Assembly (NCBI GenBank): GCA_040389905.1
Contig: JAZJZK010000031.1
Span: 1-41,255 of the forward strand
Reading direction: 5' to 3'
Length of the DNA: 41,255 nt
Source: Gemmatimonadota bacterium
GTDB lineage: Bacteria; Gemmatimonadota; Gemmatimonadetes; Gemmatimonadales; Gemmatimonadaceae
Positions 1,622 to 18,188 of this stretch are shown piece by piece. How positions within the stretch are numbered: the first letter of the stretch is position 1; every line of letters starts with the position of its first letter. The translations under genes were made by a program, and so were the position numbers. Below the pieces are notes generated by a model that saw only the letters and a list, made by a program, of their open reading frames with translations, was not told the DNA's origin and made no database searches.

Positions 1622-3505
1622 GTCGAGTAGCGGAGGGGAATCGCACCCCTCCGCCCTCACAGAACCGGACGTGAGACTCTCGCCTCATCCGGCTCCTACT
1701 CTCCAGCCTCCGGTTTCACCCCGAGCTGCCACAACACAAACAAGGTGGGGTCCCCGTCGCGCGACGCGCCCTAACCAGTGCATCGACGCACGCTCTCGAC
1801 GGCGAAATCGGGTGTACTTCCGTCGCACCCATGCAGCAAGGGCCTCATTGAAAACGCGTAACACTTGAACACACTTCGACCGATAGAACCGGCCATAGTA
1901 GTTCATCCAGCCTTGTACGACTGGATTGGTGACCCGCGCCAGGTCCTCCAAACGCTGATTGTTCCTGGTGGCCGCCATCCGCCAATCGCGAATGGTCGCG
2001 CGGATCTTCTTGGCCGCCTTGGAGCTGATCGCTGGAAGGAAGCTCACAAAGAACTTCCCCCATCGATTCTTCGCCCGCCGAGGTTGGAAGGTGTACCCGA
2101 GAAAGTCGAACGTGATGTGCTCGTGCCTCCCGGGCCGGTCGTCATCTTTGCAGTACACGATGCGGGTCTTCGTAGGATGAAGCTCCATACCGCACTGCTC
2201 AAACCGACCACGAATGGCGTCCAACACTGCCTTGGCCTGCTCCTCACTGCCACAGTGCACCACCGCATCGTCCGCATACCGCTCGAACCGAACGCTCGGA
2301 TGGTTCCTCTGCATCCAGACATCGAACGCATAGTGCAGAAAGAGATTGGCCAGCAACGGACTGATGACGCCACCTTGCGGCGTGCCCTTCCTCCGTTCCA
2401 CCAACGACCCGTCCGCCCGTTGCACTGGTGCACGTAGCCACCGCGCAACGTAGAGCCGAATCCATGGCGAGTCAGTATGTCGTGCCACGGCGCGCTCAAC
2501 CAGATCATGCGGGATGGAATCAAAGAACCCCTTGATGTCCAAATCGATCACCCAGTCAGTCGTCCAGCAGCGCTTTCTCGCGACCCCGACCGCGTCGATC
2601 GCCGACTTGCCGGGACGATAGCCATACGAGTCGTCATGGAACACCGGTTCCACTCTCGGCTCGAACACCATCTTCACGACCGTCTGTGCTACCCGATCCG
2701 CGACGGTAGGAATCCCGAGTGGGCGCGTACCGCCGTTGTCCTTCGGTATCTCGACCAGCCGCACGGGCGGTGGGACGTATGCGCCCGACGACATCCGATT
2801 CCAGATCTTGTACAGATTGCCCTTCAGATCTTTCTCAAACGTCCCCAGAGACACACGATCCACGCCCGCTGCACCGCGGTTCGCCTTGACCCGTTGATAC
2901 GCTTTCCAAACGAGTTGCTTCGGAATGTCATACGGCTTTGCCTCAGACACCGGCTCCTCCCATTGCTGGTTGACCTGTCCCTTCGGCCAGAGAGTCGGGC
3001 TCCTTCGCTCCGCCCGCATTACCGGGCCTCCTCGCTACTACGAGCCCGTCCGCCCCTTCGCCTCGCATTGGTACTCTACTCCTCATGGGTCCACCACTTG
3101 GAGGTCTCCCTTCGCATCGAGGCGAGAGGTTCCCACGTTCCGCACAAGAGCCTGCGCTGAGCTCGCGCCACCTTCATGCCGGTCATCACTCGGGCAGTCG
3201 ACAGGCTTCCCCCCGAGCTCCTTCACAGGCCAACAACTGGAGCCTGCTTTCGATGACGTCCGTACGCTTTCGACACATTATCAGTGGTTCACTCGCGTTC
3301 GCCTTCTCAGCGCGCACCTGACGGGTTGATCCCGCCTTTTCCGTCTCGCTCACCACCCCAGCCATTGTGCCAGAGCAGCATCCGGTGGTTTGGACCCTGG
3401 TCCTGCAACCCGAGTCCGAGGGGCCAGCCCTCATCTCCTGTGCAGCAAGGCTGCATTGATTCGGCTTCTACATGCTTGCCTCCTCTTTGCGCCGTCGTGG
3501 CGCAC
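1622..3505 (-). mobile_element. Complete class-D-like group II intron (1884 nt) inserted one base after the YADD codons of a host RT gene
   Basis: 5' end GTGCGCCACG at 3505; domain V GAGCCGGATGAGGCGAGAGTCTCACGTCCGGTTC; 3' end ...CTACTCGAC at 1622; candidate EBS1/EBS2 pair with the 5' exon. Confidence 0.92.
1685..2950 (-). CDS. ltrA: Group II intron reverse transcriptase/maturase, class-D-like, no endonuclease domain; probable +1 frameshift near the C-terminus
   Basis: KPYDIPKQLVWKAYQRVKANRGAAGVD, LYKIWNRMSSG, RPLGIPTVADR, GTPQGGVISPLLAN, FERYADD. GTG start at 2950 follows GGAGGAG. Confidence 0.93.
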   Translation of the reverse strand: MSEAKPYDIPKQLVWKAYQRVKANRGAAGVDRVSLGTFEKDLKGNLYKIWNRMSSGAYVPPPVRLVEIPKDNGGTRPLGIPTVADRVAQTVVKMVFEPRVEPVFHDDSYGYRPGKSAIDAVGVARKRCWTTDWVIDLDIKGFFDSIPHDLVERAVARHTDSPWIRLYVARWLRAPVQRADGSLVERRKGTPQGGVISPLLANLFLHYAFDVWMQRNHPSVRFERYADDAVVHCGSEEQAKAVLDAIRGRFEQCGMELHPTKTRIVYCKDDDRPGRHEHITFDFLGYTFQPRRAKNRWGKFFVSFLPAISSKAAKKIRATIRDWRMAATRNNQRLEDLARVTNPVVQGWMNYYGRFYRSKCVQVLRVFNEALAAWVRRKYTRFRRRERASMHWLGRVARRGPHLVCVVAARGETGGWRVGAG

Positions 3506-4346
3506 AGTCGTCAGCATAGCGAACGAACCGGTGCCCCCGGCGCTCCAATTCCCGGTCGAGATCGTCGAGCAGGATGTTGCTGAGGAGCGGCGACAGGGGA
3601 CCGCCTTGCGGCGTGCCCTCTGTTCGGGGCGACATCACCCCGCCGTCCATGACGCCCGCTTGCAGGTACCGGCGTATCAGACGGAGCACTCGTTTGTCTG
3701 CAATCCTCCGGGCCACGCGCGCCATCAGGATATCATGGTTCACGCGGTCGAAGAATTTCTCGAGGTCCATGTCCACCACCCACCGATGACCCGCCGCCAC
3801 ATACTGCTGCGCGCGCCGCACGGCATCGTGGGCGCTCCGTCCCGGACGAAAGCCGTAGCTCGCCTCCGAGAAGGTCGGATCGATCAGCGGTTGAAGAACT
3901 TGGAGCAGGGCTTGTTGAATGAATCGGTCCAGTACCGTCGGGATGCCCAAGGACCGAAGACCGCCACCGGGTTTCGGAATCTCTACCCGACGCACGGGCT
4001 GCGGAATGTACTCGCCCTTAAGCAGCGTCTCCCGCACGCGCGGCCAGTGCACCGCGAGGTAGCCTTTGAGCTGGCCGACCGTCATGCCATCGGTGCCCGG
4101 TGCTCCCTTGTTCTGCACGACGCGCGTGTACGCCTTCACCAAGTTCTCGCGACGCAGCACCTCCTCCATGAGCGGTAACGTTCCTCCGTTCGTCACCTCG
4201 TCTTGTGCCGTGGACGTTTGACGCGCGCCTTCCCCCGCGACGTCGGCGATTCCGTCGCCGACGTCGCGGGTGTGCTCCGGCATCTCAGCCTTCTCGTCTG
4301 CGTCTCGCTCGTCCATCGAACGCCTCGCGTGCGAACGACTCTCCAT
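3506..4346 (-). pseudogene. ltrA: N-terminal half of group II intron RT (RT0-RT5 through YADD), class-C-like
   Basis: LMEEVLRRENL..AY.RV..NKGAPG.DGM, LGIPTVLDRFIQQA, VVDMDLEKFFDRVNHD, GTPQGGPLSPLLSNILLDDLDRELERRGHRFVRYADD; interrupted at 3505. Start codon uncertain. Confidence 0.9.
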
Positions 4347-5383: not shown

Positions 5384-5845
5384 ATGAATTCGTCAGCTCG
5401 GATACGATGCAGCGTTACGATTATCTGCCTTACAATTCCGTGCGGCGCGAGCGCGCAGGGCGACACTACCCGTGCCAGTTTCAAGGTGGGTAGCTGCCCA
5501 GCGCCTTCGGCCGACTCCGTGAAATGGGACTCCGTGGTGAGCGCCGTCGATCAACCCGCGCGCATTGTTCCCAGCACGGTCCCACGCTTTCCCATGCATC
5601 TGCGCACTGAGAACGCGTACAGCGGCAGAATCGTCTTGGCGATGGTGATCGATACGACCGGCGGCGTCGTCCAAGGCAGCGTCTCCGTGGAGGAGTCGAC
5701 CGATCCGCGACTCAGCACTTGGGGATGTCTGGTCGTGTATCAGATGCGGTTTACGCCGGCCACCGTCGCGGGAAAGCGGGTAGTCTCCCTGACTGAGCAG
5801 CCGCTCAGCTACAATGTGGGCGTAGGTCCGACCGCCAAACCGTGA
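5384..5845 (+). CDS. Exported protein with TonB C-terminal-like domain (cassette ORF)
   Basis: Signal-like N-terminus; PRFP..LR....SGRIVLAMVIDTTG.V..GSV.V..S.DP......MRFTPATVAGKRV....EQPLSY parallels the C-terminus of the TonB at 26625. Followed by attC. Confidence 0.72.
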   Translation: MNSSARIRCSVTIICLTIPCGASAQGDTTRASFKVGSCPAPSADSVKWDSVVSAVDQPARIVPSTVPRFPMHLRTENAYSGRIVLAMVIDTTGGVVQGSVSVEESTDPRLSTWGCLVVYQMRFTPATVAGKRVVSLTEQPLSYNVGVGPTAKP

Positions 5846-6326: not shown

Positions 6327-6412
6327 CGAACCGCGAGAGCTGATCGCGAGGGCGGCGCAGGGTGCGACGTTGCGGACGCGATTGGCGGTATCTCGGTGAA
6401 ACGGTTGCCGGA

Positions 6413-6901
6413 TTGATCACGCGCGCGCTCGCGGCAGTCGCCCTGTCGTGCACGAGCACCGTTGCGAGCGCGCAGCTGTTCGCTCCGCACGTTTCTGTGA
6501 AAGTGCACTGCGGCACACATGGCCTGCATGGTCCGGTGGCAACGGTTCGGTGGGCGCCGTCCGGATCATTCCAGAACACGCATCTCGACTACTCGCTGTA
6601 CCGCGATGGCTTCCAGCGGGGCTTGTTTGCGTCCGTGTCGTTCACACCGAATGCGACGGCGATCGCAACGGCGATCAGCTATTCGTCGGCGAGCCCGAGT
6701 CGCGATTCGTCGCTCACTCAGTACCAGCTGAAGGTGCGGTCCGTCACGCAGCGGAATGATACGGTGACCGTCCAGCTGACGGGCATGGATCCGGGCGTGT
6801 TCTACTACTGGCGCGTGTCAAGCATCGACGTGCCGTTCGTGGTATTCCGCTGGGGCATCAGCTCGATGGCGCCGTCTTGCGGCGAAGTGCGGTCGCCATG
6901 A
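6413..6901 (+). CDS. Secreted hypothetical protein, possibly fibronectin type III-like
   Basis: Signal peptide ending ASA-Q; VQLTGMDPGVFYYWRV resembles FN3 strands. Start uncertain (TTG 6413); stop overlaps the next ATG. Confidence 0.65.
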   Translation: MITRALAAVALSCTSTVASAQLFAPHVSVKVHCGTHGLHGPVATVRWAPSGSFQNTHLDYSLYRDGFQRGLFASVSFTPNATAIATAISYSSASPSRDSSLTQYQLKVRSVTQRNDTVTVQLTGMDPGVFYYWRVSSIDVPFVVFRWGISSMAPSCGEVRSP

Positions 6902-9333
6902 CACGCCGATCTCGGGTGTTGGCAGCGGCACTGCTCGTCTGCCTCGTTGGATTTCCAGGCGCCGCGCAACAACCGGTGGTGAAGTCTCAGCCGGCCCGTG
7001 CGCCGGCGCTCGTCTGGCGCGACATCAACCCCGATTCATCGAGCACGCACGCGGTGCAGATCAATGGCGCCAGCGGCGGCCGCGTGAACGGACTCGCCGC
7101 CGCTTCTGACAAATCAGTCTTCTTCGCGGCATCTGAATGGGGAGGCCTGTACCGAAGTACCGACTCCGGTCGGACGTGGGCGCAGTTGTCCCGTCACTTG
7201 CCGATGGCCACCTGGCAAGTCGCCGTGGATCCGACAAACCCCAGACGCGTTTACGCGACGTCCTTTTTCGATGGCCGCACGAAGAGTCTGGCCGGCATCA
7301 ACGTAAGCACGGATGGCGGCGCCACGTGGGTGCATCCGAAGGTGAGTACGCCCGCACCGGGATTCTGCGACTCGCTCAGCCGCGAACAGAATCCGTCGGC
7401 GTTCGGCATCGCGATCGACAAGTCGAATCCGGCGCGTGTGCTCATCGGCACGAACTGCGGCCTGGCCGAGAGCAAAGACTCGGGCGTGACGTGGAATACG
7501 ATCTATCCTCTCGCGCACGGCGAAGCAGCGGATGTGTGGAGCGTCGTCATTCACGCCGGCATCGTGGACATCTGTGGTGAGGCCGGACACAGCCGATCGA
7601 CGGACGGTGGCAAATCATGGAGCGACGCGGCACGTCTGCCATTGCTCTCCGGGCGCTGCTCGATCACCGCATCACCGCGCGATTCAAACCGCCTCTTCGC
7701 GACGGTCGGTGGTTCGGTCTTCCAATCACGCGATGGGGGTGAGCAGTGGCTCCCCCTGGACAGTGCGTACCGACGGCCGGACAACGGCCCCGGGCGCATC
7801 GCATCGATCGCCGCGAACAATCGGTCGGACTCCACCTTCGATCTCTGGTACGGATACGAAAATCTGTATCGCGGCACCTGCACGCCGTCTCGCTGTCCAC
7901 TGCCGGACACCAGCGGCGTCGGTTGGCATCTTCTGGGGTGGACGAACGGCGCACATCAGGACATCGGTGTCGTGCTGTTCGATCCTGCCGCCCCGACGGA
8001 CGCCTGCCCGATCATGCTCTCGAACGATGGTGGCATCGAGTTGAACACGGTGACAACGAGTCCCGCGTGCCACACCGCGCCGCACTGGATTCAACCAAAC
8101 GTCACCCCGCACGGGCTCTGGTTGCTCAGCATGGATCTCGCAGAGATCATCACACGCGATTCGATCGTGCAGCTCCCGGGCGATAGTGTTGGCGTGAAGA
8201 AGACGAACGACCTGCATAACTATCATCGTGTCGTGTTCGGGACGCAGGATAACGGCGCATTCCAGACGGATCGCGCGAATTCGACAATGCTGTGGTTCAA
8301 TACGGATCCGGCGGATGCGGGAGACGCCCTTTCCGGCACCCGTCTCACACTCAACAGTGTGTGCTGTTATCCGGAGAAACGACTCTTCCTGCGCCATATT
8401 GGTGCGGGCGCCGTCCTGTCCGATACAGCGGCGAGTCGGGTCGTACCGCCGTCGAACAGCGCCGCGCTGAGCATCAACGGCGTCGTCGCCCATGTGCAGT
8501 ATTCGCAGTACGCAGCGCTGACCACTGCCGGCTTGCTCCTCTCGCAGTCGGTGGGGTTGGTGAAGAACAAGAGCGACAGTGTTTGGACGTCGCTCGGATG
8601 GCCGACGATAATTCCCAAGCCCGACACCGGCAGCAGTGCGGGCCTCATGGTCTCGCGTGGCAGCACTGGCCCAGTGTTCTACGTGCGGATTGATTCTGCC
8701 GGCGCGCCGTCGCAACTCTGGACGCTTACGGGCGTGCGATGGCCCGCGAGCGAGGTCGCTGTCAATCCGCAGACCAGATGGCGGCACGTCACGCCACCGA
8801 ACGGCATCGGAGGGTTCGGCGTGGTGACGGTCGACCGCACAAACCCGAACCGGCTCTTTGCCTCTCATGACGTCCCGGATAGCACTCCACGGATGATGCT
8901 ATCCAACGACGCAGGACTCACGTGGACATATCTTCCCTCGCTCGACGCGTGCATGACCGGACACGGAAAGTACTTCTACACGAATGCCCGGGGCCCCACC
9001 GGAATCGGCGCTGGGAAGAACGGCTTCTCCGGCTACTCGCAGCCGACGATGGTTGGGTATGGCGCGCCGACCGACAGTGGCCGGGTCATGTTCGCGGGAG
9101 CGGCAGACGCGGGCATCTTCATGAGCATCGATCGCGGAAAGCATTGGGCAGCCATCACCGATCCAGATCAGACGTCGCTGCTCGGCCTCCCGCATTTGCC
9201 TCGCCCGCTCTTCGTGCAGGCATTCGGAGGAGAAACCAACAGCACTGCCTACTTCGGTACGCAGGGTCGCGGGATATGGCGATTGTTCTATCGCAACCGA
9301 CAGCTCGGTGGAGCAGCGCTGCCTTCCTGTTGA
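6898..9333 (+). CDS. Secreted BNR/Asp-box repeat beta-propeller protein (VPS10/GH74/sialidase-like fold)
   Basis: Signal peptide; repeated S-x-D-x-G-x-x-W boxes (STDSGRTW, STDGGATW, SKDSGVTW, STDGGKSW, SRDGGEQW, SNDAGLTW, SIDRGKHW); N-terminal GGRVNGL and C-terminal GTQGRGIW. Confidence 0.85.
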   Translation: MTRRSRVLAAALLVCLVGFPGAAQQPVVKSQPARAPALVWRDINPDSSSTHAVQINGASGGRVNGLAAASDKSVFFAASEWGGLYRSTDSGRTWAQLSRHLPMATWQVAVDPTNPRRVYATSFFDGRTKSLAGINVSTDGGATWVHPKVSTPAPGFCDSLSREQNPSAFGIAIDKSNPARVLIGTNCGLAESKDSGVTWNTIYPLAHGEAADVWSVVIHAGIVDICGEAGHSRSTDGGKSWSDAARLPLLSGRCSITASPRDSNRLFATVGGSVFQSRDGGEQWLPLDSAYRRPDNGPGRIASIAANNRSDSTFDLWYGYENLYRGTCTPSRCPLPDTSGVGWHLLGWTNGAHQDIGVVLFDPAAPTDACPIMLSNDGGIELNTVTTSPACHTAPHWIQPNVTPHGLWLLSMDLAEIITRDSIVQLPGDSVGVKKTNDLHNYHRVVFGTQDNGAFQTDRANSTMLWFNTDPADAGDALSGTRLTLNSVCCYPEKRLFLRHIGAGAVLSDTAASRVVPPSNSAALSINGVVAHVQYSQYAALTTAGLLLSQSVGLVKNKSDSVWTSLGWPTIIPKPDTGSSAGLMVSRGSTGPVFYVRIDSAGAPSQLWTLTGVRWPASEVAVNPQTRWRHVTPPNGIGGFGVVTVDRTNPNRLFASHDVPDSTPRMMLSNDAGLTWTYLPSLDACMTGHGKYFYTNARGPTGIGAGKNGFSGYSQPTMVGYGAPTDSGRVMFAGAADAGIFMSIDRGKHWAAITDPDQTSLLGLPHLPRPLFVQAFGGETNSTAYFGTQGRGIWRLFYRNRQLGGAALPSC

Positions 9334-9444: not shown

Positions 9445-9735
9445 ATGGTACCGCCTCCCTCCGCTGCACCGCTGGAAATCGGCGATTTGCTCGCCGGTGA
9501 CATAGCCACCGAATTGTGGAACAGCACGGACAGGAGCAGGGGAATGCACAGCAGCCCTCGTGCGGAGGATGCGCCGGCGTCCACACCGCCTGGGTCGCCG
9601 GTGTCGCCTGTGCCATGTCCGGTGTCACCGTTCCCCTGCGGAAGCTCGGACGGATGCTCTCCCGAGCCATGTCCTGTCTCTCCTGTCCCCTGCCCTATAT
9701 CGCCCTTCCCATGCGGGAGCACGGACGGCTGCTGA
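9445..9735 (+). CDS. Putative lanthipeptide-type RiPP precursor (96 aa) with duplicated Ser/Pro/Cys core
   Basis: AGGAG RBS at 9435-9439; acidic Cys-free leader; core SPVPC-PV-SPFPC-G-SSDGC-SPEPC-PV-SPVPC-PI-SPFPC-G-STDGC; directly upstream of the kinase/lyase/LanC genes. Confidence 0.85.
   Translation: MVPPPSAAPLEIGDLLAGDIATELWNSTDRSRGMHSSPRAEDAPASTPPGSPVSPVPCPVSPFPCGSSDGCSPEPCPVSPVPCPISPFPCGSTDGC
9604..9732 (+). repeat. Two diverged 54-nt coding repeats (9604-9657 and 9679-9732)
   Basis: Of 18 codons, 6 are identical, 10 differ synonymously and 2 differ conservatively (V/I, S/T). Confidence 0.9.
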
Positions 9736-9788
9736 GCGTTCCCACCCCGTAGCTTGAGTCGCTGTTCCACTCGGATTGCGCGCATCAG

Positions 9789-10859
9789 GTGAACCCCGAA
9801 GAGGTGATTGCATACCTGCTCGAGGTTCAACTTCTCGATGCGCGCGATTTCGTGTGTGGCGCAATCCGAGCCCAGGATCGCAGCGCACGCCATCGCGGCG
9901 TGTCCGTCGAGACCACAACTCGGCCGGGGTATTTCGTCAAGCACTCGCCACCCGGCGACGTTATCGGGACGCTGGATTCGGAGGCGACATTCTACCGGTT
10001 GGCGAACGGCGAAGGGCGCCTCAGCGCGCTCAGGCCGTTTGTTCCCGCGTTTCATCGTTATGACGCGGCGCGAAGGACTCTCGTCATCGAGCTCGCGTCC
10101 AATGCCGAACCGGCGCGGGGTGGTGAGCGCCGCGCATTTTCCATCGCACGAATCTCGCAACCGCTGGCGCACGCTCTCGCGGCTTGTCATTCCGCTGGGA
10201 CTGAGGACGATCAAGCGACACGCGCGACGTTCAGCCGGATGTTACCGTGGGCATTTCACATCGCGTTCCCGTCGGCCGCCATCTTTCGCGATGTGGGCCC
10301 CCTCCAGCTGGATGTCATCAAGCTCATTCAGCGCCAGCCCGATGTGATCGAGCGCTTTCGCTGGCTGCGCCGCGAGTGGAAGTGGAGCACGTTCACACAT
10401 GGCGATGTTCGCTGGTCCAACGTGCTCGTTGACGACAATGACGCTATTCGCCTGATCGACTGGGAGACGGCAGGAATCGGCGATCCGGCCTGGGACATCG
10501 CGTGCGCATTCGAAGGATGGTTCTCACGCGCGCTCGAGACGCTCCCGTTGCGAGAGAACGACGGTCCACGAGAGGCATCCGACGCGTTCGCGCAGATTCT
10601 CCCATCGCTGCAGGAACAAACGCGGCAACTGTGGCTTGCGTACGCGAACGCACGAGCCTTGTCGCAGGAGGAGCGCCGTACACTGCTCGAATGCGCCACC
10701 GCACTGGTAGGTGCTCGGCTGATACAGTCGGCCTATGAGTGGGCGCGTGGTCGCCCGCAGTTGTCACCATTCATTCTTCTGTCTGTCCAACTCGGCGTGA
10801 ACCTCTTGCGACAGTCACCGGCGCAACGCGCTACCGTGCTCGGACTCTCGGCCGCGTGA
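9789..10859 (+). CDS. APH-family phosphotransferase, LanK-like kinase
   Basis: YFVK lysine, HGDVRWSNVL, IRLIDWE.AG.GDPAWD motifs; coupled to the HopA1-like gene. Confidence 0.88.
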   Translation: MNPEEVIAYLLEVQLLDARDFVCGAIRAQDRSARHRGVSVETTTRPGYFVKHSPPGDVIGTLDSEATFYRLANGEGRLSALRPFVPAFHRYDAARRTLVIELASNAEPARGGERRAFSIARISQPLAHALAACHSAGTEDDQATRATFSRMLPWAFHIAFPSAAIFRDVGPLQLDVIKLIQRQPDVIERFRWLRREWKWSTFTHGDVRWSNVLVDDNDAIRLIDWETAGIGDPAWDIACAFEGWFSRALETLPLRENDGPREASDAFAQILPSLQEQTRQLWLAYANARALSQEERRTLLECATALVGARLIQSAYEWARGRPQLSPFILLSVQLGVNLLRQSPAQRATVLGLSAA

Positions 10860-11782
10860 CCTCAGCATCTCCGCAGCCGACGCCCATCGAAGCTCTCGAG
10901 CCCATCGTCGAGCGAATGCGGCGTGCCGACTGGGTACATGCCGAGGACGCTGAGCACCGGCTGGCGCAGTTGATCTATCAGGTCTGTCACGGACGCCAGC
11001 AGATACCCGAACGGGCGACGCGTGCGTTGCCTGCCGATGCGTTAATGGACCGTGAGTTCGCCGCCGGGCTGTCGCGAGCCAACGGCGGTATTGGGCCGCG
11101 CCATGACAGTTGGACGGTACGCACGATCGAGGATGATGGGCGCCTTGCGGTGGAGCTCGATGGCTTGATGCTATGGATCGACGGACAGGCAGGAGCGTCG
11201 GTCGGGGATCGTGTCGCTGTGCGTCTTCCGAAGGAGTATCGCAACCTGTATCCCGGGCATTACGTGGCGATCGGCGATGCGGACCGCGGAACGCGAGCGA
11301 ATCCGGTGCGCATCTACTGGAACATCGGCTCGGAGGGAGCACCGGTTCTGTTGGAGGCGGTCACGCGGACGTTCAACGCACGAAACATTGCCTTTCGATT
11401 CAAGTTGTTGAGTTCACCGCGTGCCTACACGCGCGCCGACGCGGCGATCCTCTATCTGCCCGCATTTCACAGAGCGGAGGGCGCTGAGCTGGTTCGACAG
11501 GTGTATCGCGACGTGCGATCGATCATGCGCACGCCGAATTCAGCCTTCGTCCTGGCTCTCGCGCCCGGCTTAGGGCTGGCGGAAGATCCCATGGATGGTT
11601 CGAGCTTTGGCCTGCATCGAAGCCGCCTGATCGCGTCCATGCTCATTGCGGCCGTGCACCACGAAGAACCGCTTTCCGAAATTGCCAGCGGTCTCGAAGG
11701 CGCTGGCTACGACCTTCGGCATTTTTACCGGAACCCGGGATCGAGCGCACGCTACGACGACTTTGTCGTGGACGACGTCTGA
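10856..11782 (+). CDS. HopA1-family protein, LanY-like phospho-Ser/Thr lyase
   Basis: VRLPKEYRNLYPGHY, VRIYWNI, FRFKLL, RADAAILY, LAPGLGLAEDP..GSSFGLHR; GTGA start/stop overlap with the kinase gene. Confidence 0.88.
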   Translation: MTSASPQPTPIEALEPIVERMRRADWVHAEDAEHRLAQLIYQVCHGRQQIPERATRALPADALMDREFAAGLSRANGGIGPRHDSWTVRTIEDDGRLAVELDGLMLWIDGQAGASVGDRVAVRLPKEYRNLYPGHYVAIGDADRGTRANPVRIYWNIGSEGAPVLLEAVTRTFNARNIAFRFKLLSSPRAYTRADAAILYLPAFHRAEGAELVRQVYRDVRSIMRTPNSAFVLALAPGLGLAEDPMDGSSFGLHRSRLIASMLIAAVHHEEPLSEIASGLEGAGYDLRHFYRNPGSSARYDDFVVDDV

Positions 11783-11783
11783 C

Positions 11784-13046
11784 ATGTCGAGTCCCGCTGA
11801 ACGCTGGCTCCGTATCGCAGAGGAGATTGCGGAGTCGTTGTGCGCTTCCGCGTACCGGTTCCACGGTGAATGTACATGGATGGGATCGGTGCAGCGCGGC
11901 GGCGGCGCCATCGGCGGAAACTCGATCTTCACCTATGAGACCCTGCCGCCCGATCTGTACAACGGAGCCAGCGGGATCGGACTGTTTCTCGCCGAAATGT
12001 TCCGGCACACGAAGCATGGGCAGATGCGAACGATCGCGCTCGAGGCACTCCGCTTCAGCGCCGCGCGGCTCGATCAGATTCCTGCTCGCTTTCGCGCGGG
12101 CTTCTACACGGGACGAGTCGGAATCGCGTATGCACTCGTGCAGGGAGGTACGCTACTCGACGAGCCTGCCCTGATCGCGGATGCACACCGAATCCTGGAC
12201 GTCATAGCCGCCGACGAAGGCGATGGGATACTTCTCGATATCATCTCCGGCGCAGCCGGGGCAATCGCACCGCTGCTTGCGATGTCCTCATCCTTGGCGC
12301 GCGATGATCTCTTCGCGCTGTCGGAAGTTTTCGGACGGATGATCATCGTGGCGGCGCATCGCGGGGATACCGGCTGGTCCTGGGGCGACGACGCGACGGG
12401 GTTTCACGCTCAGCGTCCGCTCGCGGGATATGGTCACGGCGCCGCTGGGCTCGGACTCGGATTGATGGAGCTCTTCGCCGTTACGGGTGAAGAGGAATAT
12501 CGAGTCGGCGCCCTCAGTGCGTTCGGATACGAGAATGCCCTTTTCAGTTCCTCACGCGGCAATTGGCCCGACCTCCGCTATTCCGCCGACAGCAGTGACA
12601 ACGGGCACTTTGGCGTGGCGTGGTGCCTCGGCGCACAGGGCATTGGCATGAGCCGCTTGCGCGCGATGGCACTCGATCCGCTCACCGCGCAGCACGTCGC
12701 TGACGCGGAGGCGGCGATTGGCGCCGTTCAGCGACAGTTCCACAACACCATCCATCCCGGGAGCTCGGATTTTTCCCTCTGTCATGGCTTCGCAGGCGAT
12801 GGTGATTTTGCACTTCAGGCGGCTGACGCGCTTGAGCGTGAGGATGTGCGGCGCCTTGCACACGCGATCGCGGAGAGTGGCGCCGTGGCGAATGGCGGCA
12901 GCCCTACGCGCTGGCACTGCGGACTCCAGCGCGGAAGCAATCCGTCGCTCATGCTCGGCCTTGCAGGGATTGGGCACTTCTACCTTCGCCTTGCTGATCC
13001 GTCGGTGCCATCTGTGCTGCTCGTGACGCCTGAGCTCAATCGCTAA
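11784..13046 (+). CDS. lanC: Stand-alone LanC-like lanthionine cyclase
   Basis: DLYNGASG, GFYTGRVG, DIISGAAG, GYGHGAAG, NWPDLR, WCLG and LCHG (zinc-ligand Cys, Cys and His retained), SLMLGLAGIG; ATG at 11784. Confidence 0.92.
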   Translation: MSSPAERWLRIAEEIAESLCASAYRFHGECTWMGSVQRGGGAIGGNSIFTYETLPPDLYNGASGIGLFLAEMFRHTKHGQMRTIALEALRFSAARLDQIPARFRAGFYTGRVGIAYALVQGGTLLDEPALIADAHRILDVIAADEGDGILLDIISGAAGAIAPLLAMSSSLARDDLFALSEVFGRMIIVAAHRGDTGWSWGDDATGFHAQRPLAGYGHGAAGLGLGLMELFAVTGEEEYRVGALSAFGYENALFSSSRGNWPDLRYSADSSDNGHFGVAWCLGAQGIGMSRLRAMALDPLTAQHVADAEAAIGAVQRQFHNTIHPGSSDFSLCHGFAGDGDFALQAADALEREDVRRLAHAIAESGAVANGGSPTRWHCGLQRGSNPSLMLGLAGIGHFYLRLADPSVPSVLLVTPELNR

Positions 13047-13099
13047 CGTCTGCGGGGGTCATCCCGAGCTCGCTCGGGGTGACAGACGTTAGCGTTGAG
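13035..13099. terminator. Long palindrome between convergent genes (REP-derived, probable bidirectional terminator)
   Basis: CGCTAACGTCTG...CAGACGTTAGCG encloses GTCATCCCGAGC/GCTCGGGGTGAC; both TAA stops lie symmetrically in the stem. Confidence 0.6.
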
Positions 13100-16043
13100 G
13101 CGGGGCACCAAGCCGCTGCAAGCCTGCGAGCGCCTCGCGAACCGCGGGCTGAAGCTGCTCGTCAGCACTCTTCCAGACGGCCGCAACATAAGTGTACGCG
13201 CTGATCGCATCGTCACGACGCCCAAGGCGCTCTGCGACACGACCACGCTCGAGCCGCCACCGTACACCGATGGGATTGTAGATATTCGGAATGTCATCGA
13301 GGATTTTCCACGCCTCCCCAAGGCGACCGCGCTGCGAAAGCAGAATCGCTGCCTGCAGCGGCTCGTAGGGGCAGAATGGAATGATGCAATCCGTTGGGCC
13401 GAGAGCGAGTAGCGCAGTGAGAGCGTTGGCGGTGTCACCGCGCGCAAGCGTGAGGTACGCACGCGATGCGGCGCCGAGATGACGCGAGTAGCGCGCCGCG
13501 TTGTTTCCGGGCGCGCTTTTCGCCGCGTCGGCTTCGGCGCGCTCGGCGACTGCGCGAAGTGCTGCCGTGTCGTGATGCTCACTCCACCACGGCAGCGCGA
13601 AGATCGATCCCGTTGGTCCCGCTCCCGCTTTGCGGCTCAGACTATCGAAGAAGACTGCACCCTCTCGGCGGGGCAGTGCGTTCATCATGACGAGACTCGC
13701 CTTCAGGAGCTGTGTCACCCATCCCGCTTCGAACTGAGGACTCAGCGCGTACGCTTCTCGGAGGTGACCACGAAACGCGAGAGGATACGCTAGCTGGAAT
13801 GCTGTGAACTTCGGCTCGGCGTATCGTGGAATGCTCGTCCGTCGGCCAGGGCCCAGCAGCCGCGCCAGCCGCACCGCTGATTCGCCAGAGTCCGGCCAGT
13901 AGCTTACGACGTCGATAGCGTGGACGAGAATCTCACCCGACGCAGTGTCCAACACCGACTGTATTTTGGCAGCTGGCGTCCGCTCGTCGAGAAGCTGTGA
14001 CGCAAGACGCAACCCATCCCCGTGAACGTCGGTGGGGTTCAGGGCGAGATACGCACGGAGATAGCGGCGAGCAGCATCCGTACTGCCGGTCGCCATCGCG
14101 AGATACACGGCATCGAGGTACGGTGGCGCGAATCCGGAATCGATGGCGATTGCGCGGTCGAGCGCTTTCAGGGCACCGCGCACTTTCATCGACAGAATTG
14201 CTCGCGCGTTGCCCAGCGAATACCATAGCTCGCGATCGTCAGGATACTGCGTCGTGGCGGCGTCGAGTGTTTGGAACAGGTCGCGCACATGTTGCGGGTA
14301 GTCACGGTCGGCGAACCCGCTGTTCACGACCGATTTGAGCCCCTCGGCGTGAACGAGCAAGCTCTCACGCGGAGCCAGACCGTGGTTCAGCGCCGCCGCG
14401 CGTTGCGCATACTGACGCGCAAGCGCGTCATCCGGATATCGCTGCCAACCCGCGACCATGCTCATGCGGAGATACGCCAGCGCCATCGTCGAATCGAGAT
14501 CCACAGCGCGCTGGTAATACACCATCGCCGAGTCCCACGCAGTACGCCTGAAGTAGTGCTCGCCCTGGAGAAACGCCTTGAGCGCCGGCAGCGGCGTCGA
14601 TCGCGCCGCCACCATCCGCGCCTCGGCCATCCGTTGCGATTGCCCCAAAAGCCGCAGGACCTCGAGAGTGAGCCGCTCCGCGAGCCGCCCGATCTGCACG
14701 GTCTCCTCGGTGAGATGCACCTCGCCCAGCGGCTGCGATCCAGCCACGTCGTACACGGTGGCCGTGAGACTCACCGAGTCGGCGCCGGAGCGAAGCAGTG
14801 TACCCGATACCGCCGATGCGGCACCCGTACTCCGTCCCAGATCGCGGATGGCGCGCGGATCATTCGCACCCTTCCAGCTTTGATTGATGACGGTCATCGA
14901 GACCGAACGCAGTGGCCCCGCACCGTCGAGGTTCCGAGCAACGACTTCGGCTAGCCCTTCGCGCCACACCTCGAGCTGCGGCTCGGGGGCAGCGAACGGC
15001 GCAACGGCCACGAGATTCTTGTCGAGCGAGTCACCTGCCGCGGCCCCGCCGATGCGCCCCCACGCCTGCCATGCCGCCACGGCGAGTGCTGTCGCGACGA
15101 CTGCGCCGGCGAACACCAATCGGCGGCGCGATGTGCTTCCGGCATCCGCCTCAGGCTGATGCACGGCGCTGGTCCGATCACGCACCGCTGCGGCCTCGGC
15201 AACAAATTCTTTCACCGAGGGAAAGCGCTCGCCAGGCGACTTCGCAAGCGCTCGAATGATTGCCGCCGCAACGCGCTCGGGGACCTCCGGCCGGAATGTC
15301 TTGGCATTCGGCGGTGGCGCAGTGACGTGCTGAGCGAGCAATGCCTGAAAGGTGGGACCCTCGTACGGATGCCGCCCCGTGAGCATCTCGAAGAGCACGC
15401 ATGCCAATCCATATTGGTCCGAACTGGCGTCGACTTCACCCGCACCGAGCGCCTGTTCTGGGCTCATGTAGTACGGCGTGCCGAGTCCGGCGTGCTCTGA
15501 GGTGAGCTCGAGTGCACCGGGCGTCGGTTCGAGCGCGCGGGCAAGGCCGAAGTCGGCCACAACTGCGAGTCCGCCGGACAACAGCACATTCGCCGGCTTG
15601 ATATCGCGATGTACGACGCCGCGGTCATGCGCATGCTGCAGGGCGGCGGCGATCTCACGCGCGAGCCGGTATGCGTCGCTGAGGGGTAGCCGGCCTTCCC
15701 GCTCGAGGCGGTGTGCGAGCGTCTCACCTTCGACGAACGGCATCACATAGTACAGCAGCCCCTGCTCGGAGCCAGACGTGAACACCGGTAGAATGTTCGG
15801 GTGCGTGAGCCCGGCCGCGATGAGGATCTCGCGAAGGAAACGATCCGAGTTGACCGTGCTTGCGAGCTCCTGCCGGAGCACCTTTACGGCGACAGACCGC
15901 TCATGTTTGACGTCACGCGCAAGAAAGACGGTTGCTTGCGCGCCAGCGCCGATCTCGTCGCCGAGGATATACCCGTCGCCGAGGGCGGCGGAGACGCGGG
16001 ACGCAAGCGAAGGAAGGGAGGCGTCACCCAAGGGGGAATGCAC
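13089..16043 (-). CDS. Hanks-type Ser/Thr protein kinase with TM segment and TPR-like C-terminal region
   Basis: GAGAQATV, VAVK, HRDIKPAN, DFG, GTPYYMSPEQ; hydrophobic segment followed by helical repeats. Confidence 0.93.
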   Translation of the reverse strand: MHSPLGDASLPSLASRVSAALGDGYILGDEIGAGAQATVFLARDVKHERSVAVKVLRQELASTVNSDRFLREILIAAGLTHPNILPVFTSGSEQGLLYYVMPFVEGETLAHRLEREGRLPLSDAYRLAREIAAALQHAHDRGVVHRDIKPANVLLSGGLAVVADFGLARALEPTPGALELTSEHAGLGTPYYMSPEQALGAGEVDASSDQYGLACVLFEMLTGRHPYEGPTFQALLAQHVTAPPPNAKTFRPEVPERVAAAIIRALAKSPGERFPSVKEFVAEAAAVRDRTSAVHQPEADAGSTSRRRLVFAGAVVATALAVAAWQAWGRIGGAAAGDSLDKNLVAVAPFAAPEPQLEVWREGLAEVVARNLDGAGPLRSVSMTVINQSWKGANDPRAIRDLGRSTGAASAVSGTLLRSGADSVSLTATVYDVAGSQPLGEVHLTEETVQIGRLAERLTLEVLRLLGQSQRMAEARMVAARSTPLPALKAFLQGEHYFRRTAWDSAMVYYQRAVDLDSTMALAYLRMSMVAGWQRYPDDALARQYAQRAAALNHGLAPRESLLVHAEGLKSVVNSGFADRDYPQHVRDLFQTLDAATTQYPDDRELWYSLGNARAILSMKVRGALKALDRAIAIDSGFAPPYLDAVYLAMATGSTDAARRYLRAYLALNPTDVHGDGLRLASQLLDERTPAAKIQSVLDTASGEILVHAIDVVSYWPDSGESAVRLARLLGPGRRTSIPRYAEPKFTAFQLAYPLAFRGHLREAYALSPQFEAGWVTQLLKASLVMMNALPRREGAVFFDSLSRKAGAGPTGSIFALPWWSEHHDTAALRAVAERAEADAAKSAPGNNAARYSRHLGAASRAYLTLARGDTANALTALLALGPTDCIIPFCPYEPLQAAILLSQRGRLGEAWKILDDIPNIYNPIGVRWRLERGRVAERLGRRDDAISAYTYVAAVWKSADEQLQPAVREALAGLQRLGAPPQR

Positions 16044-16103: not shown

Positions 16104-18023
16104 TCACACGGGCGTGAGACTCGTCTCGCGCAGCGGCGATCTGCGCCGCAGGCGCGCGTTCACCTCACGCTGGCCCTCGGCGAGACGCCGCATGTCGTGT
16201 CCCGCCGCTGATGCAGCATCGAGGAGCGTCGTGAGCGAGGACAGGTCCGTCGAACCCGCGTGCAACCGCAGCAGGTCGAGACGTATGCTCTCGAGCGATG
16301 ATACCGTCGAGCTTAGTGCGCGGCGCGCTTCGGAGCGTGCCTCACCCAACGCGTCACGCGTGGCCTCGGCACCACCAACAGCCTCTTGCACAGCAAGCTC
16401 ATCGAGCCTCGCGCGCGCTGTCGCAGCGCGCGCCTCGAGCTTCTCCACGATTGAGGGTAGTTCGGGAAGCCGTTCCCGGAAGCTCGCTGGCAGGGCGTCA
16501 AACAGCTCGCCCGCGGCAACGCCGAGCACGACCTCCGTTGGCCGGAACGCTGCCTCGCTGACCATCGTCGACTTCTCCGGAGCCCCAAGTCGCTTCGCGA
16601 TCCATTCGCCGAGCTTCGACGTCCAAAGCCGATCGCGCATGCTTCGCCTTCCGCGTCGCAATGAGGCCGGCAGCAGGGGCACATTGTTGATGTCGCACGC
16701 GCCGATCAGGACGAACGTGCCGATCAGCGACGCGATTTGCACGGTCGGCCAGAACCGGACGCCTCCCATCATCATCGAGCCGAGTGCAGGAATCATCGAC
16801 ACATACGTGGCCAAACGCAGGAAGTGCCGCGGCAACGTAAGGGGCTTGTCCGCGTCGACCGCGAGAGCGTCGGCGCGATCATCTTCGTCGCGCGCGATCG
16901 CGGTGCGAAGATCGGCAAGTGAAAAGCCGGCGTTGAACAACCGGCGTCCACGCAGGATATGAACGCCCACCGTCATCAATGCCGGGGGTAGGCTCACCGC
17001 GAGAGGAAATGCCCACAAGTTTCCGAGCTTTCCCAGCGAGGCACCGAGGAGCATGGCCAAGACAAGACGCAGAATCGAAACGCCAGCCATCAAGCCCAGT
17101 CCAATGAACAGTCGATACGCGGGATTCCGCGCGCGCAACCACGCTCGCAATGCGTCCGGCAGCGGTGGCTCGACGTCGCGCCGGCGCTCCAGGGCGGTGG
17201 CGAGTGCGCGCCCATTCGTGAATCGGTCGTCACGGTTCACTGACAGGCACCGATCGATCGCGGATCCGAGTTCCGCAGGCACTCCCGGCGCTACCGCCGC
17301 TAAGCGGCTGGGTGTCTCGGTCGCCTGCCGCACCATCAGCGCAGGAAGATTCGGCGCGTCGAACGGCAGGCGTCCGCTCACGGCGACGTAGCCGACCACG
17401 CCGAGCGCATAGAGGTCGCTGCGACCGTCGATTTCCTGATTCGCCGCCTGTTCCGGGCTCATGAAATGGGCGGTGCCCATGACGCGTCCCGGGTCACTCG
17501 GCGTCGTCTCCATCACGGCGCTCGAGCGTGCGATTCCGAAATCCGTCACCAGCGCGCGACCGGTGCCCGCTTCGAGCAAGATGTTATCGGGCTTGATATC
17601 CCGGTGAATGATCCCGCGCTCATGCGCGTAGTCGAGCGCCCACGCCACTTCGCGCATGATGCGCATCGATTCCGCTGGCGCGAGCGGTCCATCGGCACGA
17701 AGCTGCTCGCCGAGCGTCCGGCCTGGCACGTAGGCCATGACGAAGAACACAAATCCGCCAGCTACTCCGACCCGATGAATCGGAACGATGTTCGGATGCG
17801 ACAGCCCGGCGGCCGTTCGCGCCTCGCGGATGAAGCGCTCGCGAAGACTCGGCTGCTCCGCAAAGTGTGATGGCAGCACCTTGATCGCGACATCCCGGTC
17901 GAGCTGCACATCCCGGGCGAGGTATACAACCCCCATGCCGCCGCGGCCCAGCTCGCGCTGAAGGGAGTATTCACCGGCGAGCGCGATCTGGAGGGCGATG
18001 AAGTCGGGCGGGATGAGGCTCAT
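16104..18023 (-). CDS. Hanks-type Ser/Thr protein kinase with multi-TM C-terminal region
   Basis: GRGGMGVV, VAIK, HRDIKPDN, DFG, MSPEQ; start reassigned to ATG 18023 by comparison with the upstream paralog. Confidence 0.93.
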   Translation of the reverse strand: MSLIPPDFIALQIALAGEYSLQRELGRGGMGVVYLARDVQLDRDVAIKVLPSHFAEQPSLRERFIREARTAAGLSHPNIVPIHRVGVAGGFVFFVMAYVPGRTLGEQLRADGPLAPAESMRIMREVAWALDYAHERGIIHRDIKPDNILLEAGTGRALVTDFGIARSSAVMETTPSDPGRVMGTAHFMSPEQAANQEIDGRSDLYALGVVGYVAVSGRLPFDAPNLPALMVRQATETPSRLAAVAPGVPAELGSAIDRCLSVNRDDRFTNGRALATALERRRDVEPPLPDALRAWLRARNPAYRLFIGLGLMAGVSILRLVLAMLLGASLGKLGNLWAFPLAVSLPPALMTVGVHILRGRRLFNAGFSLADLRTAIARDEDDRADALAVDADKPLTLPRHFLRLATYVSMIPALGSMMMGGVRFWPTVQIASLIGTFVLIGACDINNVPLLPASLRRGRRSMRDRLWTSKLGEWIAKRLGAPEKSTMVSEAAFRPTEVVLGVAAGELFDALPASFRERLPELPSIVEKLEARAATARARLDELAVQEAVGGAEATRDALGEARSEARRALSSTVSSLESIRLDLLRLHAGSTDLSSLTTLLDAASAAGHDMRRLAEGQREVNARLRRRSPLRETSLTPV

Positions 18024-18090
18024 GGGACTCCCAACGGGAGAGGACTCGGAATATGGGTTTTGACGCCTCCCGGCCCTACGGCGATTCGTG

Positions 18091-18188
18091 TCCGGTCGTT
18101 TCCAGCGCATCCGGTCAATCCGTTCCTCAAGCTGTTGATGCTATTAAGGAGCGGATTGATCGGATGCCACGGAAACAACCTGATCAAG
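18091..18188. repeat. Palindromic repeat, family B (arms back to back)
   Basis: TTAAGGAGCGGATTGATCGGATGCCACGGAAACAACCTGATCAAG plus an inverted copy; similar to 33267 and 38152. Confidence 0.75.

Follow-up and report, generated by a model that had tools for sequence, protein, structure and literature searches.

A class Vb-type lanthipeptide cassette with a proline-rich repetitive precursor beside a receptor-like kinase gene in a Gemmatimonadota genome

Four closely spaced genes in a Gemmatimonadota genome (GenBank assembly GCA_040389905.1) encode a small repetitive peptide, a kinase, a lyase and a cyclase of the kinds that build lanthipeptides, and they end tail-to-tail with a gene for a receptor-like kinase. 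This raises the question of what the four genes make, and whether their product has anything to do with the receptor-like kinase. The genes lie on contig JAZJZK010000031.1, of which positions 1 to 41,255 of the forward strand were analysed (41,255 nucleotides, referred to below as the window); the source genome, 5.08 Mb in size, is designated G000. We consider it very probable that the locus is a class Vb lanthipeptide cassette making a peptide with serial lanthionine rings, and probable that the cassette is functionally tied to the receptor-like sensor; taken jointly, ring chemistry and functional tie are still somewhat favoured. The original prediction described a minimal locus. This does not hold, as two flanking genes that it missed, one for an upstream propeller protein and one for the convergent receptor-like kinase, are conserved together with the cassette.

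Enzymes of the cassette and their class

The four co-directional open reading frames (ORFs) are present and spaced as first described. A precursor peptide of 96 amino acids (aa; 9445..9735, + strand) is followed after 53 nucleotides (nt) by a LanK-type Ser/Thr kinase of the APH fold (9789..10859, +, 356 aa), which shares a GTGA overlap with a LanY-type phospho-Ser/Thr lyase of the HopA1 fold (10856..11782, +, 308 aa); 1 nt further on begins a stand-alone LanC cyclase (11784..13046, +, 420 aa). The large palindrome reported at the end of the locus was borne out as a strong hairpin across two convergent stop codons (13041..13094), with a folding energy of -35.8 kcal/mol (z -5.0) that none of 200 shuffles equalled. 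It covers the 42 nt that separate the stop codon of LanC from that of the convergent kinase gene and is likely a terminator shared by both genes; the output of a scan for U-tract terminators does not include it.

Judged by their motifs, all three enzymes look active. The kinase matches PF01636 with 65 bits (cut-off 23.2), with intact Lys (K51), HGDxxxxN (204-211) and IDWE (223-226) motifs. Its best score among sub-threshold NCBIfam models is to the LxmK equivalog NF038156 (82 bits, below the cut-off of 315), and a sequence search of PDB returned generic phosphotransferases only. In the lyase (PF17914, 123 bits), R152, K183, R193 and Y200 are invariant and H45 near-invariant among 25 homologues. 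The spacing of the first four residues is 31, 10 and 7, compared with 32, 10 and 7 in CaoY (R187/K219/R229/Y236), of which R187, K219 and R229 matter according to the mutations described in the available text of PMC9486802. The lyase family profile also matches LxmY in PDB 9DK1 (E 1.5e-21), which is the LxmK-LxmY complex according to the accessible part of PMC12141560. The cyclase (PF05147, 167 bits) has a predicted acid, H218, conserved in 91 of 91 sequences, and predicted zinc ligands C281 (91/91), C333 (91/91) and H334 (90/91). These positions were assigned by alignment to LicM2 (6ST5), the sole match of the LanC search in PDB, and also by NisC numbering. Of the three enzymes, only the cyclase matches synthetase models, in each case below the cut-off (TIGR03897, 245 < 304; NF038150, 126 < 650; NF038151, 50 < 575), and three separate ORFs stand in place of the dehydratase-cyclase fusions of classes II, III and IV (LanM, LanKC and LanL).

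Class Vb is described, in the available text of three papers (PMC11186320, PMC12291118, PMC12328550), as LanK and LanY with a dedicated LanC, forming only lanthionine or methyllanthionine, (Me)Lan, links. The 2024 paper gives mSmoA as its sole characterised member (PMC11186320), and the 2025 review lists class Vb activity as undetermined (PMC12328550), each in the part available. The enzyme layout is not new, because the locus fits class Vb by every sequence feature tested, and the suspicion that LanK, LanY and a stand-alone LanC without LanD form a novel architecture had to be dropped. By these features the locus is a class Vb-type cassette, which we set beside mSmoA on the basis of the published description. 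According to the accessible part of that description, mSmoA resembles the locus in having a separate APH kinase and HopA1 lyase, a stand-alone LanC, no LanD or LanX and a C-terminal Lan, and only (Me)Lan links are expected in both, for the locus as a prediction. The observation that the core ends in Cys without a LanD stands, but the anomaly once seen in it does not, because mSmoA has a C-terminal Lan. As described there, the mSmoA peptide is a stapled one that has two overlapping rings in addition to the C-terminal Lan, whereas seven non-overlapping, mostly two-proline rings are predicted for the locus. Furthermore, the available text of the class Vb descriptions says nothing of a linked receptor kinase or a secreted propeller, and the reviews, as far as accessible, place characterised class V systems in actinobacteria, whereas this locus comes from Gemmatimonadota.

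Class Va systems (cacaoidin with CaoK/CaoY, lexapeptide with LxmK/LxmY, triantimycins and rosins) have a dehydratase pair of the same type, with the Arg/Lys/Arg/Tyr spacing conserved, and two of the predicted rings fit the (S/T)2-X2-C motif. In contrast to class Va, the locus has a LanC and lacks LanD, LanX, LanJ, methyltransferase, M16 protease and ABC exporter genes; its leader bears no resemblance to the type-A CaoA leader as described, and its kinase, at 82 bits, falls well short of the LxmK cut-off of 315. The scan of 15 window ORFs showed no flavoprotein, no second APH gene and no match to a LanD, methyltransferase, reductase, protease or exporter family, in agreement with the original prediction. 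Precursor, kinase and lyase each have one tblastn match in the source genome, and a second LanC-like match is the LanM of a separate cluster.

Among 122 loci fetched with the lyase profile, which include some duplicates, 94 encode kinase, lyase and LanC, either as three separate genes (53) or as a kinase with a lyase-LanC fusion (41); the remaining 28 are without one part and often lie at a contig end. Counted over loci L009-L130, 47 of 122 have a single gene for lyase and LanC (a LanY-LanC fusion). Locus L208 (G915:C87, 5584-9609) has a 1342-codon open frame in which an APH, a HopA1 and a LANC_like domain follow one another, kinase first and cyclase last. It is possibly a three-domain synthetase in a new order, although its linkers look non-coding and it may be a read-through. 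At L149 (G420:C160, 5005-6375), a 456-aa ORF with no Pfam match lies directly upstream of a divergent kinase-lyase-LanC trio and may be a protease-fused precursor.

The precursor family and its predicted rings

The precursor begins with a leader containing LLAGDIATELW (aa 15-25) followed by GMH(G/S), occurring as GMHS/GMHG and with no clear double-Gly site. Its core has seven S-x3-C motifs, starting at S54, S61, S67, S72, S79, S86 and S92, of which five read SPxPC and the others SSDGC and STDGC. When residues 45-96 were shuffled, seven Cys with Ser/Thr at position -4 arose once in 100,000 shuffles; residues 46-93 contain 12 Ser/Thr in total. The precursor ORF has no Pfam or NCBIfam match. The ESM Atlas gave no usable match or cluster for it, a result that shows neither absence nor novelty.

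We collected homologues by three routes: the sequences P0122 and P0123, loci upstream of kinases, and a large profile search. Homologues are encoded in L010, L011 (partial), L013 and L089, in each case directly upstream of the kinase, and the profile search against 1.84 billion representatives gave 10 matches, 7 of them at E <=1e-10. The presence of similar peptides upstream in homologous loci had been set beforehand as a check of the prediction, and such precursors are there. They have in common a leader of the form L(L/F)xG(D/E)(I/V)xxxxW, usually with GxHG next, and cores of the form (SPxPCPx)n with 2 to 12 Cys per core. The retention of the leader across 12 sequences indicates that the precursor represents a real family. 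In the 12 full-length precursors, 78 of 83 Cys have Ser/Thr at -4 and 57 of 83 at +3; a ring register from Cys to +3 is thus the less likely one, fitting 57/83 Cys vs 78/83.

An explanation that would remove the precursor altogether had to be considered, because the commonest heptamer array of the genome nearly reads as the core unit. G000 contains 19 exact arrays of the 7-nt repeat [CT]CTGTC[CT] (on contigs C2, C3, C5, C7, C8, C12, C15, C35, C40, C54, C60 and C66), of which 8 are of the commonest unit; the translation of this unit, PLSPVPC, differs in one residue from PVSPVPC, the unit of the precursor. The precursor could accordingly be an ORF that arose by chance where an intergenic 7-nt repeat has decayed, and the SPVPCPL repeats of P0122 would agree with this. 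However, two internal 20-codon copies differ by 12 synonymous vs 2 non-synonymous codon changes. The ORF therefore looks selected as a protein, and the leader is conserved in the same 12 sequences. Moreover, at five loci 29 of 157 codon positions agree with the heptamer frame vs 38.6 expected from the enzyme genes, and the repeat has thus left no codon trace in them. The origin of the precursor as a repeat artefact is largely refuted, and we give a chance ORF practically no credence. It is possible that the core was anciently born from such a heptamer repeat.

The leader also connects the family to longer peptides. At 42 loci among L009-L149, an ORF rich in Cys, Ser and Thr begins with a domain of about 100 aa that ends in FLxG(D/E)I, and a profile of this domain was built from 14 of those 42 loci. 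The SPxPC leader looks like a short form of this domain, one that retains only the FLxG(D/E)I motif, as we infer from sequence comparison. The long domain has the pattern ..GyLG..g.WRLYL..l..YvEi..FLxGDI and stands ahead of very diverse cores; some of the open frames that carry it exceed 1000 codons (L022, L095, L096 and L100). Another group of sister precursors, at L131-L134 and L207, combines an FLxG(D/E/R)(V/I) leader with histone-like, Lys-rich cores containing 1-4 Cys. An example of such a core is AAKKK...RRGPGCGTGKKTC, and P0127 bridges the Lys-rich and SPxPC types.

Precursors of a different kind occur where the cyclase is missing. Loci L135, L136, L210 and L211 have kinase and lyase without LanC, lie downstream of a gene combining adenylate cyclase, transmembrane segment, TolB and TPR regions, and encode 120-145-aa precursor candidates with Cys-free, Thr-containing tails (DTTPWHWQ, KTTPWHE, KTTPWHEW and PVTSWHP). 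They are likely dehydro-peptide systems, and the occurrence of Cys-free candidates in these four loci means that precursor type tracks the enzyme set. This bears on a further explanation, by which the enzyme trio also acts on the neighbouring receptor-like kinase: the lyase would remove an activation-loop phosphate, as OspF and HopAI1 do, and LanC would cap the dehydro residue as LanCL does. According to the parts of the sources available, LanY is similar to lyases of the OspF family, which act on MAP kinases by eliminating phosphate (PMC9486802), and LanCL1 adds glutathione to a dehydrobutyrine (Dhb) peptide from the Erk activation loop (PMC9934072). This is very improbable nonetheless, given that the kinase gene is preceded by a dedicated precursor candidate, that the Cys content of this candidate tracks the presence of LanC, and that the gene beside the cassette encodes an adenylate cyclase in place of a kinase at five loci, the constant part being the outer sensor domain.

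For the peptide-directed chemistry, then, we propose the following pathway. The LLAGDIATELW segment would dock on the kinase, as the CaoA leader has been modelled to bind CaoK. By comparison with CaoK/CaoY and LxmK/LxmY, a kinase-lyase heterodimer would phosphorylate core Ser/Thr with ATP and eliminate the phosphate to give dehydroalanine (Dha) or Dhb. The zinc-dependent LanC would then add each Cys to the Dha four residues upstream, giving rings predicted at 54-58, 61-65, 67-71, 72-76, 79-83, 86-90 and 92-96, with possible extra dehydro residues at S46, T47, S51, S68 and T93. In class Va, the (S/T)2-X2-C motif is associated with lanthionine rings and with closure controlled by the substrate, according to the available text of PMC11186320 and PMC12291118. 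Since SSDGC and STDGC fit this motif, which can close without an enzyme in class Va, the two-proline SPxPC rings are likely the reason why LanC is kept. Intact enzyme motifs and similar peptides at homologous loci thus support, as a prediction, the lanthipeptide chemistry with up to seven five-residue rings that was first proposed.

With the enzyme layout known, three things appear to be new here: the family of SPxPC precursors, the proline-rich rings predicted to follow one another in series, and the pairing with a sensor. Judging by titles and abstracts, we found none of these in the open literature, although subscription papers or supplements could hold them, and the accessible parts of bioRxiv 10.1101/2023.10.26.563470 and PMC11251773 contain nothing on the SPxPC family. 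The locus offers a compact class Vb case, testable in Escherichia coli, with a new substrate type of repeated two-proline five-residue rings, and the variation from 2 to 12 Cys among relatives could make such rings useful as a modular rigid scaffold. In addition, the FLxG(D/E)I motif and the long leader domain provide a handle for finding precursors across many phyla.

The receptor-like kinase and its linkage to the cassette

The convergent gene (13089..16043, - strand) encodes a 984-aa receptor-like Ser/Thr kinase, as recognised from Pfam matches, hydropathy and an AlphaFold model. A kinase domain (27-273) is followed by one hydrophobic segment (309-327; mean hydropathy 1.9, and 1.5-2.3 in four relatives, which have it too), and then by a TolB_N-like domain and a TPR solenoid. 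The model (predicted local distance difference test score, pLDDT, 88.5) matches TolB (Z 15.8) and TPR proteins, and the Foldseek matches include the periplasmic domain of CadC (3LY8) weakly (TMq 0.19). The TolB_N-TPR region is predicted from the model to lie outside the cytoplasm. This predicted arrangement of a cytoplasmic output, one hydrophobic segment and an outer sensor resembles that of CadC/ToxR-type sensors and of PknB/Stk1. It differs from the former in having a Hanks kinase or an adenylate cyclase in place of a DNA-binding output, and from the latter in having no PASTA domain match. The literature searches made found no ring-peptide ligand for sensors of either type, and the lyase profile has no similarity to the sensor.

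A gene for such a sensor, with transmembrane segment, TolB_N and TPR regions, adjoins the cassette at 13 of the 16 kinase+lyase loci of Gemmatimonadota that have enough flanking sequence to be tested. Seven of these (G000, G488, G125, G363, G277, L090 and G866, the last with a small ORF between cassette and sensor) have a sensor of the kinase clade, five (G187, G222, G891, G910 and G915) have the adenylate cyclase type, which marks a sister lineage, and G055 has a different, unrelated sensor kinase. Outside the count are G905 (a 3.5-kb contig), G705 (lyase without kinase) and G243 (a weak partial match), and L013 and L146, which are identical in sequence, were counted once. Four of the four testable loci found after the sensor prediction had been made have the sensor, a fifth being too short to test. 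The closest copy of the whole module is at L089, labelled Acidobacteriota (58-66% identity, with the sensor at 66%).

It is conceivable that sensor and propeller are passengers of an old island with no functional tie to the peptide. The sensor family is an expanded one, with 16 TolB_N-TPR genes in the 5.08 Mb of G000 and members in 91 of 401 genomes of the phylum, a second kinase gene and two group II intron reverse transcriptase genes lie nearby in the window, and many of the loci are kin. By our own estimate, chance would place a sensor beside the cassette at about 1% of loci, a figure to be read with the reservation that kin are not independent. Against passengers, the linkage is kept at 28-35% kinase identity while outer neighbours vary from locus to locus, it involves three sensor lineages (kinase clade, cyclase clade and the unrelated G055 kinase) in three different arrangements, and all four of the newly found loci fit. 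We therefore regard this explanation as unlikely. The 3' end of the kinase gene was also considered as an insertion hotspot and rejected: the sequences downstream of family members are unrelated, and LanC occurs only at known cassette loci (0.6-2 kb seen).

Phylogenies point in the same direction as the linkage. In a tree of 42 rows, eight LanC-adjacent kinase sensors fall on one side of a single branch (support 88/96), which none of 500 shuffles of the labels reproduced, and the sensors of the five cyclase loci make up a separate group (100/100). In a tree with seven adjacent rows the support for the kinase-sensor branch is 81/96. These trees exclude rows shorter than 450 aa (L185 and L188 from the 81/96 tree, L135 and L136 from a quick first tree). 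Across seven loci, sensor identity tracks enzyme identity (Mantel rho 0.51, reached in 92 of 5040 permutations), and the small sensor and enzyme trees share well-supported splits.

A functional tie does not fix its direction. The main rival, to which we give a minor though real share of probability, is that the sensor detects some other cue and controls the cassette, the peptide being an output (antimicrobial, envelope-related or structural) that acts together with the propeller. This would explain the linkage without any export of the peptide to the sensor. Biosynthetic clusters often have one-component regulators at their flanks, and genes of a winged helix-turn-helix (wHTH)-TolB-TPR type lie near L054 and L125. 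The Lys-rich cores of the sister precursors (L131-L134, L207) would also suit such an output, as in cationic antimicrobials. On the other hand, neither of the output domains found at the cassette, kinase or cyclase, binds DNA, and no immunity or export gene was seen. The sensor co-diverges with the enzymes while the cores differ widely, which ligand-receptor pairs fit at least as well.

The reading that we propose, as a possibility, is that the modified peptide is the direct ligand of the sensor. Enzymes from other parts of the genome might remove the leader near GMH(G/S) and export the peptide, a speculative step, after which the TolB_N-TPR domain would bind the peptide and switch the cytoplasmic kinase, as the gene neighbourhood suggests. 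More generally, and again tentatively, Gemmatimonadota may use ring-closed or dehydrated peptides as private ligands, with a co-evolving TolB_N-TPR domain switching a kinase or cyclase. If true, this would be a bacterial counterpart of the peptide/receptor-kinase signalling of plants; the orphan sensors, which form an expanded family, would have their first ligand, and class Vb peptides a function. The receptor link is unexpected, directly testable and the most interesting part of the locus; through the pairing, the role of non-antibiotic class V peptides and the cue of the kinase/cyclase-TPR receptors become testable together.

Several observations weigh against these proposals. The main difficulty for a ligand is the missing exporter: the sensor is predicted to face outward, and the fetched SPxPC loci contain neither exporter nor protease. 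The sensor is absent at three testable loci of the phylum (L148, L149 and L105, the first two in genomes G667 and G420), and outside the phylum, among L009-L130, it was found only at L089, L054 and L125, the latter two having the wHTH-TolB-TPR type nearby; this rarity means that the cassette works without the sensor. Conversely, the sensor is common without the cassette, as the 91 of 401 phylum genomes that have the family compare with 8 of 401 that have the lyase. The count of 13/16 overstates independence because several loci are close kin (G125/G866; G222/G891/G910), and at L090 an IS630-type transposase (12101-13186) occupies the place where the sensor kinase domain should be. Two long branches lie within the kinase clade, which at a bootstrap of 81-88 is left unstarred. 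As regards the chemistry, LanC has Leu282 where 84 of 91 relatives carry His, a position that varies among LanC enzymes according to the available text of PMC9934072. Both the chemistry and the sensor readings are predictions from sequence, models and gene neighbourhood.

Flanking genes and other features of the window and genome

The gene upstream of the precursor (6898..9333, + strand) encodes a secreted 811-aa protein of the BNR/Vps10 family with a GH74-like two-propeller fold, as judged from Pfam, AlphaFold and Foldseek. It has a signal-like N-terminus and a confident model (pLDDT 90.8), for which the best Foldseek matches are GH74 xyloglucanases (TM ~0.57). The two-propeller fold is common to this protein and to GH74 xyloglucanases and Vps10-type propellers at about 15% identity. 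Two acidic residues, E80 and D451, are invariant, and the motifs around them presumably resemble the catalytic motifs of GH74, from which the protein differs in having Glu instead of Asp in the first of them.

In L010, L013 and L089, the gene immediately before the precursor encodes a propeller homologue (42-59% identity). Among the 10 closest other homologues (56-58%), one is that of L089 and five are on contigs of the same size as the contig of a close lyase match (6154, 28614, 18150, 82182 and 24111), two of these sizes also fitting precursors P0122 and P0123; three others are on contigs shorter than 4 kb, and one has no match. The linkage of propeller and lyase suggested by equal contig sizes is circumstantial. 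Of the loci with Lys-rich precursors, L131, L132 and L134 lack the propeller and L133 encodes a distant relative only.

A small, probably secreted FN3-like protein (6362..6901, + strand) is encoded just before the propeller, with a weak fn3 match (E 0.0065) and an uncertain start; its stop overlaps the next ATG. It has a homologue in the corresponding position in L013/L146, none was seen in L089, and it appears to be a loosely attached part of the module. Further upstream, outside the module, are a small TonB_C-like ORF (5384-5845; weak Pfam match, E 0.008) and a tandem pair of reverse transcriptase ORFs of the group II intron type (1685-3019 and 3468-4346, - strand), one with the maturase domain; this pair suggests a variable island upstream of the locus. 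On the other side, directly upstream of the receptor-like kinase gene, lies that of the second Ser/Thr kinase (16104-18110, - strand), which has several hydrophobic segments and no TolB/TPR region.

Elsewhere in the source genome, flavoprotein matches are confined to two open frames of 201 and 416 aa on other contigs, which we read, from length alone, as housekeeping UbiX/CoaBC. A separate class II lanthipeptide cluster lies on contig C4 at about 34000-47000 (L137, L191), with a LanM of 1077 aa (DUF4135 + LANC_like), two ABC transporters, an outer-membrane efflux protein and a prenyltransferase/squalene-cyclase-like protein, and the sole C39 peptidase match of the genome is found near it.

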